Below are positions 9,001-12,000 of a stretch of DNA of 64,000 bases, piece after piece. The position numbers are program-made. The DNA comes from Escherichia phage PA36: sequence record KP682386.1; one strand, 5' to 3'. The stretch's first letter is position 1, and each line of letters starts with the position of its first letter.

Positions 9001-12000
9001 AAGACCACTCGTGATGGGGTTGGCCTGTGTAGTTTGTCGGAGCTAATCGCCTCCTGACTTTGCAGGTTTGCGCGACGAGCTCTACGGCGAGAAGCTGCGG
9101 TGCCTTTAAATTCTGTTTTTCTGGACATAGATTCCTCCCGAATAAACTTTGGCGATGCAATCTCGAAGCTCCTCCTGAGACGGTTGCTTCGGCATTGCAT
9201 CCCACAGCTTATGTGGTTGGGTGATCTGGCTTTTCAGCCACGTAGTCGAGAGTCGACGTTGTTTAAAGAGCCTGCCAGTCTGTTCCATTTGGCTTCCAGC
9301 GTCCTGCTGATGGTTAAATAGTACGATATGTACTTCACTTGGTCAATACAATTTGTTCTAAAACGGGGCGTTTTTTTACAACGCTTTGTATTTAATAGTA
9401 TTGTTTTTTAGCGTGGGTGTATTGCCTCGGCGATGTAAGGAGAGATCAGAATTGCGTTGTTTAGTGAGTTGTATCTATTTATTTTCCAATAAATACAATT
9501 GGTTATGTGTTTTTTTGGGCGAGAGGAAAAGAAAACCCGGCATGGAGGCCGGGTTGATGATTAGCGGTGTGGCCTTGAGCGATAATGCTCACACACATGT
9601 TCAAGATTTCCATGCCTTATCCGTTCATAGGCATTCACATGAACTTCTCGATCGAATTGGTCATTCAAATTGTATGTAGACATCTGTGTTTTCTCATATT
9701 GGCGGCAGCCCTACAACCGCTTGAAAAAATGTACCAGACGCGCTAAGGTTACATCGCAAATATTGTGTACCTTAACAAGGGCTCCTTTTGGAGGCTCTGG
9801 TTAAACAGCATCAATGTCGGACTGGGGAGTTGGACATTGTGCTGAATGCTTTTGCATTATTGAGGCCGAACGTAAACCTTCAGAATTGAAGAGATGCGTT
9901 CGGCTTCTTCGTTTGTGATATCGTTAGGAATGCCTTTAATCGTTACTGTAACCCCTGATTCAGGTCGAAGAACTACTGGAAGATCATAGGTATGAAGTGC
10001 ATTAGCCTTGCCTTCGACTTTTGTTGGTTCGCCAGTCAAATCTTTTTCCTCACTGGATTCTTTGTCAATCGGAGTGTATGGGATTTCTTCACCAGACTGG
10101 AAAGCTACAAACTTTTTGATTGCACTTTCCATGCGGCTTTTATATGCAGTAATGCTGCTGTCGCTAGGCTTCGGCTCAGTTGCGTTGATGTATCGCTCGG
10201 CAAGCTCATTCACATCAAGCTGAGTAACATCACCCATTTCCTCTTCTTGGACTACCGTTAAGAGGCGAGCGGATGAGTTTTTTAAATTTCGAGCGGTGGC
10301 CTCCTTCATTATGTTCAGCGACATAAGCTCTTCAAGGAAGTCCTTGAATGCCTGCACGCTAACGTTTGACTTTGCCATTTGCTCTCTCTCTAAGTTATTG
10401 ACTCAGATCGAGTTTATCCAGGAATTGATTTGCATGCAAGACTCAAGTCTTGAGAATTTCCGTTCAAGATCCACTCTCAATAAAAAAGGCCGCACCTCTG
10501 CGACCTTTCATCTCCTAAATCTCTTTTCTCTTACCTAAAGAAACAGCAGGCTGGGTCAGCCCTAACAACTTCAAGTGCATCGGTCAGAGAAAGCTCCGTG
10601 CTATACAGGTGTTATTTCATATCTTTTTGCATCCAATAAATTTTCCATCTGTCCAGAGAGCGGATGCACTTGATTCTTGTTGATGGCAGGACGTTTTTTC
10701 ACCTGCCTCACCCTGCCATACAGGACGCTGCTCACCGATATCTATCGTCCGGTCATTGATGTTATAGACAATATCCAGATCATTACGGATATACTCAGAT
10801 GGCCTTATGCTTTCAATGAATAGATGAACTTCTTTTTGACCGCTTGATACTCATGGCCATTAAACTCCATCTATCCTCTTTACCCAAACGTCTCTTCAGG
10901 CCATTGGCTGGCGATAACTTTCCCCACAACGGAACAACTCTCATTGCATGGGATCATTGGATATTGCGGGTTTAGTGGTTGTAGAAACACCTGACCGCTA
11001 TCCCTGATCAGTTTCTTGAAGGTAAATTCATCACCACCAAGTCTGGCTATGCAGAAATCGCCGGGCTCAACAGCTTGCTCAGGGTCAACCAGAATTAACA
11101 TCCCGTCAGGAAAACTAGGTTTGGAACCTGTTGGTGCGGTCATTGAGTTACCTTCAACCTCAAGCCAGAATGCAGAGTCACTGGCTTTTTTGGTTGTGCT
11201 TACCAATCTCTCCGCATCACCTTTGGTAAAGGTTCTGAGTTCTGGAGAGAACATCCCAGCCTGAACATGAGAAAAAACAGGGTACTCATATTGTTTTTTA
11301 ACTGGGGCCGATGAGTATTCGCCAACAGGTGAAAATGTCCCGTCGTGGTTGAATGATATGTTATCAATACCAAGGTATTTAAACACCACACCAATATCAC
11401 TAAGAGATGGATGACGAGATCCGCGCAACCAGTGTCCAATTCCACCCTGCGTCATACCTAGCTCTTCGGCTAACTTCTCTTGAGTTATGCCGAGCTCTTT
11501 CATTCTGGATCTAGCCAGTTCATACCATTTCATTTTCATGTCCTTATTATTACGCTCTGTACTGGAACCATCCATGCACAATGTGTATTTTTACTTGTAT
11601 TTGAGAAGTACATATTGTATTTTTTTATTCGTGGTTACTATGGAGGGCATATGAGCAACCTACGAAAATATCGAGAGTCACTGAATATCTCTCAAACAAC
11701 ACTTGCTAAGGCAGTTGGATGCACACAGGGAGCTATCGGACATTGGGAATCTGGTCGTCGCTTCCCAGACCTTAAAACATGCCGTGCTCTTGTTGCGTGT
11801 CTAAACAAGTTAGGCGCAAAAGTAAGTCTTGATGACGTGTTCCCGCCGGAGCACAAAGCCGCTTAATAAGCGGAGCCGCTCTTTGTAACAACGGACATTC
11901 GTCCTACGTCGCTGAAAAGCGAGTCCCAAGATATCTGACCAACTAAGGCCATATGCGTTTCCACGCATACCTTTCAACTAGCTATTCACTATTGGAAATC

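Follow-up and report, generated by a model that had tools for sequence, protein, structure and literature searches.

The gene ECs1184, which lies at 9857-10378 on the minus strand of a 64,000-nucleotide (nt) stretch of DNA from Escherichia phage PA36 (sequence record KP682386.1; the whole stretch is referred to below as the window), is the first of three conserved parts of a compact cassette composed of a protein, a structured RNA and a small open reading frame (ORF). We regard ECs1184 as a putative autoregulated, antitoxin-like neutraliser that guards an RNA-gated small effector, a reading to which we assign a probability of about 0.4. The original prediction of a self-contained gene at this position has to be abandoned, as all three parts recur in 27 of 27 homologous loci, a comparison set in which the identity of the ECs1184-family protein ranges from 100% down to 24%. 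ECs1184 is previously known only as a non-deletable hypothetical; the architecture of the cassette, its RNA structure, the reinstated small ORF and the link to toxin-antitoxin (TA) modules appear to be undescribed in the libraries and literature searched.

The window represents a Shiga toxin 2 (Stx2) phage of the VT2-Sakai/Sp5 type: the 1.3 kb around 9857-10378 are 100% identical to VT2-Sakai/Sp5 and to more than 40 other Escherichia coli O157:H7 Stx phages, and this region is carried by 234 of 5426 complete E. coli genomes. The gene corresponds to H0093 of AP000422, to ECs1184 (ECs_1184) of the Sakai genome and to ORF23 of prophage Sp5. On the minus strand, from about 10509 to 9523, the cassette consists of a terminator, a control region (promoter, dyad and GATC sites), ECs1184, the RNA leader, the small ORF H0092 and a second terminator:

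10478-10509, minus strand: intrinsic terminator at the upstream edge of the cassette.
10468-10471 and 10406-10409, unstranded: two GATC (Dam) sites flanking the promoter.
10442-10454: palindrome CTCAAG-N-CTTGAG, the sole perfect copy in the window.
10437-10452, unstranded: dyad CAAGAC-N4-GTCTTG, a candidate operator that overlaps the palindrome and the -35 hexamer (element span 10437-10454).
10411-10439, minus strand: sigma70-type promoter, TTGCAT (10439-10434) and TAAACT (10416-10411) separated by 17 nt, with a predicted start near 10404.
9857-10378, minus strand: ECs1184 (H0093, Sp5 ORF23), 173 amino acids (aa), ATG start.
9684-9856, minus strand: structured RNA leader of 173 nt between the ECs1184 stop codon and H0092.
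9561-9683, minus strand: H0092, a 40-aa His/Cys-rich protein encoded by the second cistron (PHROG 21154).
9523-9555, minus strand: intrinsic terminator of the cassette, 134 nt before oL3.

The roughly 300 nt from the ECs1184 stop codon to the downstream terminator thus hold both a structured RNA and a 40-aa ORF, and this arrangement is constant: in 27 of 27 loci the stop codon is followed by 149-176 nt of non-coding sequence that opens with a long hairpin, a small ORF of 37-61 aa occupies the same place, and the two ORFs, set apart by this structured spacer, lie between one promoter and one terminator. Comparison with Salmonella phage vB_SosS_Oslo (Oslo) places the ends of the unit precisely, since homology to the Sakai sequence runs from 10506 to 9525, exactly terminator to terminator. 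Within these limits the non-coding parts are better conserved than the gene, with 92% identity for the intergenic RNA and 88% for the upstream region, as against 82.5% for the ECs1184 coding sequence.

The leader fold, which is supported by covariation, consists of the following helices on the minus strand:

9844-9806: P1.
9801-9796 with 9738-9733: P2, a long-range helix in which 4 of 6 pairs covary (seven loci).
9777-9769 with 9749-9741: P3.
9727-9716 with 9706-9691: P4, in which a UUUUCA:UGAGAA pairing is predicted to hide the GAGA Shine-Dalgarno region of H0092.

In the Sakai-type leader alignment (A5; seven loci, including the window), 95.8% of the cells are paired, as compared with 28-51% when the partners are slid, and nine pairs have changed on both sides. 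For the leaders of the main clade (16 loci), RNAalifold gives a fold with P1, a long-range P2, P2b and P3, with 96.2% of the cells paired as opposed to 35-47% in the slid controls, and eleven pairs changed on both sides. Two single-stranded motifs are shared by the RNA types, TAGCG before the 3' strand of P2 and a U-rich TCAAG before P4. A covariance model of the main clade (R1) finds a third type of leader on which it was not trained (locus L040, expectation value (E) 6e-4) and, weakly, that of locus L036 (E 0.07).

Searches of Rfam returned only GadY for the window (E 0.87; 20 bits, where the gathering score is 45), and at E<=1 there was nothing at the leader position in seven other loci. 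The prophage small RNAs (sRNAs) AsxR, AgvB, Pas and HnrS were considered and rejected as identities of the leader, as they sit at PR' or late-region sites. The apical part of P1 (9820-9832), just 3' of the ECs1184 stop codon, has a loop segment that occurs in two exactly opposite orientations: Sakai, L065 and L069 carry caatgtc-CAACTCCCCAGTC-cgacattg, Oslo and L036 caatgtc-AGACTGGGGAGTTG-gacattg. A small flip-flop inversion of this kind suggests formation of the palindrome in DNA or in the course of replication, and a loop whose sequence is free of strand constraint.

The small ORFs behind the leader fall into three classes: an H0092-like class (the window, Oslo, L004, L065, L067 and L069), a Cys-rich class of 47 aa and a basic class of 49-61 aa. 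Third-codon-position bias is seen in all three, with changes at the three codon positions of 3/0/6 between H0092 and its Oslo counterpart and of 34/26/136 and 1161/776/3076 in the other classes, so that H0092, which is annotated in AP000422 and absent from RefSeq, is probably a real gene. Two of the three classes are basic, with isoelectric points (pI) of 9.0-10.4; set against the acidic ECs1184, this is the charge pattern of antitoxin/toxin pairs. H0092 belongs to no Pfam, NCBIfam or PADLOC family, and the PHROGs matched by proteins of the cassette (2602, 21154 and 33859) are all of unknown function. The terminator behind H0092, predicted as a second terminator downstream of the gene, was picked up by the pattern scan (AACCCGGC...GCCGGGTT followed by a U tract; stem 9555-9534, -14.3 kcal/mol). 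A terminator of the form AACCCGG...CCGGGTTT is conserved in nearly all loci, and that behind the small ORF usually reads AACCCGG...CCGGGTTTT in the 27 loci inspected.

ECs1184 itself is the acidic 173-aa, ATG-initiated product that had been predicted (pI 4.85; 29 Asp and Glu versus 21 Lys and Arg). Its AlphaFold model comprises a confident N-terminal four-helix bundle (residues 8-94), a disordered acidic linker (residues ~102-128) and a C-terminal beta-hairpin and helix (130-169), for which the predicted local distance difference test score reaches ~85 with a deeper alignment. Close homologues are confined to Enterobacterales prophages; a profile search extends the family to 649 clusters at 50% identity, nearly all of 160-200 aa and matched over their full length, and the coding sequence shows strong third-codon-position bias and purifying selection. 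That no family could be named for the protein was nearly right: Pfam, NCBIfam and PADLOC have none, but a PHROG of unknown function (2602) exists and the N-terminal bundle resembles the core-binding (SAM-like) domains of integrases in structure search. The structures matched include MrpR/SroF, recombinase-derived repressors of SPbeta-like phages (PDB 8a0a and 9rd5). Foldseek searches of PDB and BFVD returned nothing significant, PADLOC gave no match for the window protein and three stray single-member matches among 22 diverse family members, and a literature search on stand-alone core-binding-domain proteins in TA or defence systems found nothing relevant.

Two more specific identities were rejected. 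ECs1184 is not a tyrosine recombinase: it ends at residue 173, has no C-terminal catalytic domain (R-K-H-R-H/W-Y) and no Phage_integrase match in Pfam, and integrase structures match the N-terminal bundle only. Nor is the C-terminal domain an integrase arm-binding domain, as hhalign against residues 1-69 of lambda Int gave a probability of 0.1%, none of 52 C-domain fragments matched Arm-DNA-bind and a profile search of PDB was empty.

The control region upstream of ECs1184 is delimited by a terminator that the pattern scan missed, and for which RNAfold predicts an 11-bp stem (10509-10484) followed by UUUUUUAUU with its U tract (-15.9 kcal/mol). It is kept, with a loop change, in Oslo, in Proteus and in phage SH2026Stx1, and loci L028, L065 and L067 have a non-homologous terminator at the same spot; the predicted insulation of the gene from cI is accordingly borne out by both the fold and the conservation of place. 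A decayed DUF3024 gene lies between cI and this terminator in the window, and in SH2026Stx1, Proteus and Morganella an intact one separates cI from the cassette, which implies that the terminator ends a cI(-DUF3024) transcript.

The promoter had been predicted from TTGCAT-17-TAAACT, which is indeed present, although its 7 of 12 consensus matches are at chance level when taken alone and fall below the threshold of the scanner. Its position is conserved: among 27 loci, 22 or more have TTG[CA]..-17/18-TA[AG]A[CA]T as their best sigma70-like match, which ends 25-35 nt ahead of the ATG and has a diverged spacer. It is because of this conserved position across homologous loci that we accept the promoter despite its low score. 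The 13-bp palindrome noted beside the -35 also exists and is unique as a perfect copy, but 6-N-6 palindromes are not uncommon by chance, and what is conserved is the dyad overlapping it, with a right arm that supplies the TTG of the -35. The pattern [CT]AAGA[CT]-N3-4-[GA]TCTTG recurs over the -35 in all Sakai-like cassettes; more distant protein clades have other inverted repeats at the same position (for example, GGATTCATCGATCGAT...TTGATCGATGAATCC), the arms of which change together. No second copy of the dyad or the palindrome is found near oL, oR or elsewhere in the window. Clade-specific inverted repeats combined with fixed promoter hexamers, together with the single copy of the dyad, fit autoregulation.

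The two GATC sites that flank the promoter also have counterparts in the family. Counted over the 130 nt upstream of each of 23 homologous genes, GATC occurs 49 times, versus 9.6 +/- 3.1 in shuffles, an enrichment of about 5-fold that hints at methylation- or replication-coupled control. In the family promoters these sites are often located inside the inverted repeats and in the -35 (TTGATC). A natural rearrangement of the control region is seen in E. coli strain 150 (locus L082, NZ_CP028592.1, 4023-4060, corresponding approximately to 10392-10520 of the window), where about 126 bp have been lost between two short repeats, TAAGAGA and TTAGAGAGAG. The loss takes out the upstream terminator, the dyad and the promoter and leaves an intact ECs1184 fused to the transcript of cI and the DUF3024 pseudogene; the cassette is evidently able to persist within the pRM operon.

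The cassette is not confined to one type of site. It is present in the cI-N slots of several phages; homologues with 39% identity, accompanied by the same RNA and small ORF, stand alone on the opposite strand inside tail-gene clusters, and a copy with 77% identity lies behind AlpA and DUF3024 in a non-lambdoid island. It has its own promoter and flanking terminators, is present or absent among relatives and occupies varied insertion sites, as is typical of morons. Judged by these comparisons of sequence, the cassette is autonomous, conserved and mobile and behaves as a moron, and the view of the gene as insulated, independently promoted cargo in the rex slot is upheld by the terminators on both sides, the conserved promoter position and the insertions in tail clusters. 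Its occurrence in tail clusters and in the AlpA island argues against a role bound to the immunity region.

The leader and small ORF also travel without ECs1184. A profile of the basic class matches 81 clusters at 90% identity, from Proteus, Pantoea, Photobacterium, Arsenophonus and metagenomes, and inspection of genomic contexts for a sample of these matches revealed units that lack a member of the ECs1184 family, encoding proteins of 49-52 aa with the pattern ...RWVFCRYRKVRG...LDAHxYGYxxWAFLVR:

L064, 2243-2550: leader and small ORF.
L073, 2852-3150: leader and small ORF.
L077, 2826-3159: leader and small ORF.
L081, 2775-3132: leader and small ORF.

The 3' part of the leader (TCAAG, hairpin, AAGGAGG, ATG) is conserved in these units. 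In Proteus prophages and Escherichia phage Phi06_2987 S the unit begins ~150 nt downstream of an XRE repressor and a Peptidase_M78 (ImmA-like) gene, beside the integrase; in Pantoea it lies ~175 nt downstream of a pair of Gp49 (HigB-like) and HTH_37 (HigA-like) genes; in a conjugative element it stands behind an unknown 126-aa gene; and in metagenome locus L080 no upstream gene is called within 1.3 kb. From these contexts, the unit has the look of a separate family of mobile small proteins that has escaped annotation. Since homologous units follow HigBA-like and XRE-M78 pairs, autoregulated TA or repressor modules take the place of ECs1184 in other elements.

Published genetic data bear directly on the function of ECs1184. 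Mondal et al. (PMC5155283) made marker-free, in-frame sacB deletions of Sp5 genes that leave 9 nt at each end of the ORF; 43 mutants were obtained, those of ORF23 (ECs1184) and ORF21 (ECs1180) were not, and their loss was judged apparently lethal. Such a design leaves the promoter, the leader and H0092 intact. The failed deletion fits an antitoxin- or immunity-type role better than that of a dispensable exclusion gene.

We propose that ECs1184 would be the regulator and neutraliser of the cassette and would work like an antitoxin, by shutting down its own promoter through the dyad, by keeping the leader or the small protein in check, or by both, while the RNA-gated small protein would be the effector. 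If ECs1184 were lost or titrated, the effector would be made and the cell harmed, and the outcome would be prophage addiction, possibly with abortive-infection-type defence. A model of this kind would explain why an in-frame deletion of ECs1184 fails when the promoter, leader and H0092 stay in place, and would account for the acidic, partly disordered first product, the lone dyad and the units linked to HigBA-like and XRE-M78 pairs.

Several observations weigh against this proposal. Non-deletability (PMC5155283) is a negative result without quantification, and the failure may reflect an effect in cis, such as a derepressed promoter reading into pL/N. An acidic four-helix bundle of pI 4.85 would be an unusual DNA binder, and H0092, with a pI of 7.0, is neither basic nor hydrophobic, unlike any known toxin. 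Pfam, NCBIfam, PADLOC and Rfam lend no TA or defence family support. Model R1, even with filters off, does not detect the leaders of the window, Oslo, L004, L006, L064, L073 and L077, so that the case for homology between the two RNA types is one of common architecture and two short motifs only. Among the units that travel without ECs1184, the three loci where a gene lies upstream have a P1 with a U tract, resembling a genuine terminator, and there the small ORF may be separate from the upstream genes. In addition, the polynucleotide kinase (PNK) crosslinking signal of ECs1184 is about that of the green fluorescent protein control, so that it is not a strong RNA binder (PMC7618764).

Expression from the prophage, as originally predicted, is in part corroborated: the protein was found in Sakai cultures (PMC7618764) and Hfq-bound RNA maps to the 3' end of the cassette (PMC4104026), to which spontaneously induced cells may contribute. 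The former result comes from the TRAPP (purification of the proteins bound to total RNA) RNA-interactome proteome of Sakai, in which ECs1184 was detected at near significance (false discovery rate 0.065; PMC7618764). The latter is the sRNA candidate EcOnc20, defined by Hfq crosslinking and analysis of cDNAs (Hfq-CRAC) at Sakai 1255628-1255753 on the minus strand (Tree et al. 2014; PMC4104026 supplement). EcOnc20 corresponds to about 9454-9579 (minus strand) of the window, a placement that is approximate if genome versions differ, and thus covers the 3' end of H0092, the terminator and ~70 nt beyond; it may be a 3'-UTR (untranslated region)-derived sRNA of the cassette.

The neutraliser-effector proposal can be widened. 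In its wider form, which is possible and which we put forward tentatively, the leader and its 37-61-aa protein would be an unrecognised mobile unit of prophages, integrative and conjugative elements and islands that docks behind different guardians (the ECs1184 family, HigBA-like pairs and XRE-M78 pairs). Together with ECs1184 this unit would constitute a new addiction or abortive-infection system of three components (protein, RNA and protein), in which a protein resembling an integrase core-binding domain controls the promoter and/or the RNA switch, with Dam methylation of the GATC sites at the promoter as a possible input.

Prophage defence genes are commonly found in the rex slot and in the moron sites of tail clusters. 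Since the cassette occupies both, it could alternatively be anti-phage defence or superinfection-exclusion cargo that detects an infection and stops other phages, with the large protein as sensor or effector and not as antitoxin; this would overlap with the preferred explanation if the mechanism were abortive infection. The neighbours at other loci, which include SieB and AbiTii, the GATC-flanked promoter, which is probably active in the lysogen, and the breadth of a family with a swappable small partner all suit such a role, which we nevertheless hold to be rather doubtful, given that 22 diverse members have no meaningful PADLOC match, that ECs1184 has no enzymatic or membrane domain and that a purely defensive gene is normally deletable.

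A role in the maintenance of lysogeny was proposed for ECs1184 by Mondal et al. (PMC5155283), in which case the protein would help cI to repress Sp5, or restrain pL/N, and its loss would induce the prophage. This would also make the gene undeletable, and it accords with the position next to cI in many phages and with the fusion to the cI transcript by the ~126-bp deletion in L082. Such a role is unlikely in view of the homologues with the same RNA and small ORF in tail clusters and the AlpA island, far from repressors; other lambdoid immunity regions manage without the gene, a terminator separates it from cI, and the dyad has no further copy near oL, oR or elsewhere in the window.

About equally improbable, in our estimation, is a riboregulatory or host-modulation cargo, in which the leader or 3'-UTR RNA (EcOnc20) and/or the small protein would be functional, ECs1184 an RNA chaperone or an accessory that can be spared, and the failure to delete it technical or an effect in cis. 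The Hfq-CRAC reads that define EcOnc20 and the near-significant TRAPP result speak for it, as do the standing of the RNA as the best-conserved part of the cassette and the travel of the leader and small ORF without ECs1184 in other elements; the PNK signal is not above control, however, the large protein is under purifying selection and is always present in the clade, and no target is known. That ECs1184 is a functionless, decayed integrase fragment reduced to the core-binding domain, as its N-terminal fold, the weak Phage_int_SAM_1 matches in 8 of 22 family members and the name 'XerD' given to one homologue in a database might suggest, is highly implausible, as 649 clusters share the full-length two-domain architecture, third-codon-position bias is strong, the promoter, RNA and partner ORF are conserved and no catalytic-domain remnant follows the gene.

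The neighbourhood of the cassette agrees with the rex-equivalent position that had been predicted for ECs1184, which according to the annotation of AP000422 lies between cI and pL/oL/N:

10880-11581, minus strand: cI, the upstream neighbour of ECs1184 (AP000422 annotation).
9318-9346: pL, downstream of ECs1184, with the oL operators, nutL and N.

The AP000422 annotators treated cI, H0093 and H0092 as a single pRM operon, with its end at the terminator near 9527-9555. For cI, the mechanical ORF has 233 aa and a TTG start, and GenBank and RefSeq give 217 aa (654 nt); a Proteus cI homologue (L005, 2718-3413) shares the N-terminal MKMKWYELA, which favours the shorter form. Between the cI stop codon and the upstream terminator (10507-10880, minus strand), the DUF3024 gene is decayed by two frameshifts and an in-frame stop, and retains 81-85% protein identity to the intact 113-aa gene of phage SH2026Stx1. 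At several loci DUF3024 is intact ahead of the cassette, behind cI or AlpA, and may be a frequent fellow-traveller. On the other side, the second undeletable gene, ECs1180 (H0090, Sp5 ORF21; 8546-8797, minus strand; 83 aa, PHROG 2471), lies directly downstream of N in the pL operon and upstream of ea10-cIII-kil, and its product has no recognisable domain.

Among Stx2a phages, Sp5/VT2-Sakai, from the Sakai outbreak strain, serves as the reference, and ECs1184 is one of two early-region genes that could not be deleted in a systematic knockout study. If the module does stabilise the prophage or abort superinfection, it has a bearing on how Stx phages persist and spread. As the 649-cluster protein family and the 81-cluster small-protein family are both without annotation, any function would propagate to many genomes, and H0092 should be restored to the annotation. 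What was an unexplained genetic observation is now a specific, testable cassette with a new RNA structure and an overlooked small protein.

The slot between cI and pL carries varied cargo in other phages, including rexA-rexB in lambda, stk in 933W and bstA in BTP1. Like rexA-rexB, ECs1184 lies directly downstream of cI, is apparently expressed in the lysogen, is unneeded for lytic growth and varies among relatives. In contrast to rexA-rexB, with which it has no sequence or domain similarity, it lies outside the pRM operon, insulated by a terminator and transcribed from its own promoter, and its cassette includes a structured RNA and a 40-aa ORF and also occurs outside immunity regions.

Among TA systems, a type III (ToxIN-like) arrangement was rejected: there is no tandem array in 9400-10900 other than a chance two-copy repeat of 15 nt in the coding sequence, the RNA is downstream of the protein gene and the fold is not ToxN-like. 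Type I systems and other small-protein genes with structured leaders (hok/sok, tisB/istR, ralR/ralA of rac) share with the cassette a small protein behind a leader that sequesters the Shine-Dalgarno sequence, a prophage location and an Hfq-associated RNA. The small ORFs of the cassette are, in contrast, polar or basic rather than hydrophobic, and a conserved protein gene is co-transcribed upstream; no antisense RNA gene was found, and the promoter scan gave no convincing antisense promoter. The XRE and ImmA/IrrE (Peptidase_M78) pairs of Proteus prophages and Phi06_2987 S hold the position of ECs1184 before a homologous leader and small ORF, although their proteins are unrelated to ECs1184 and P1 is there a real terminator with a U tract, so that coupling to the small ORF may be looser.

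Type II systems, such as HigBA and the paaR2-paaA2-parE2 module of O157 prophages, differ from the cassette in that the candidate toxin has 37-61 aa and belongs to no toxin family, the cistrons are separated by ~150-175 nt of structured RNA instead of being overlapped or coupled, and the candidate antitoxin resembles an integrase core-binding domain rather than a ribbon-helix-helix, helix-turn-helix, AbrB or Phd protein. They resemble it in being two-cistron operons on mobile elements with an acidic, partly disordered first product, a palindromic candidate operator over the promoter and a first gene that is reportedly undeletable, and it is to HigBA-like pairs that the homologous small-ORF unit is attached elsewhere.

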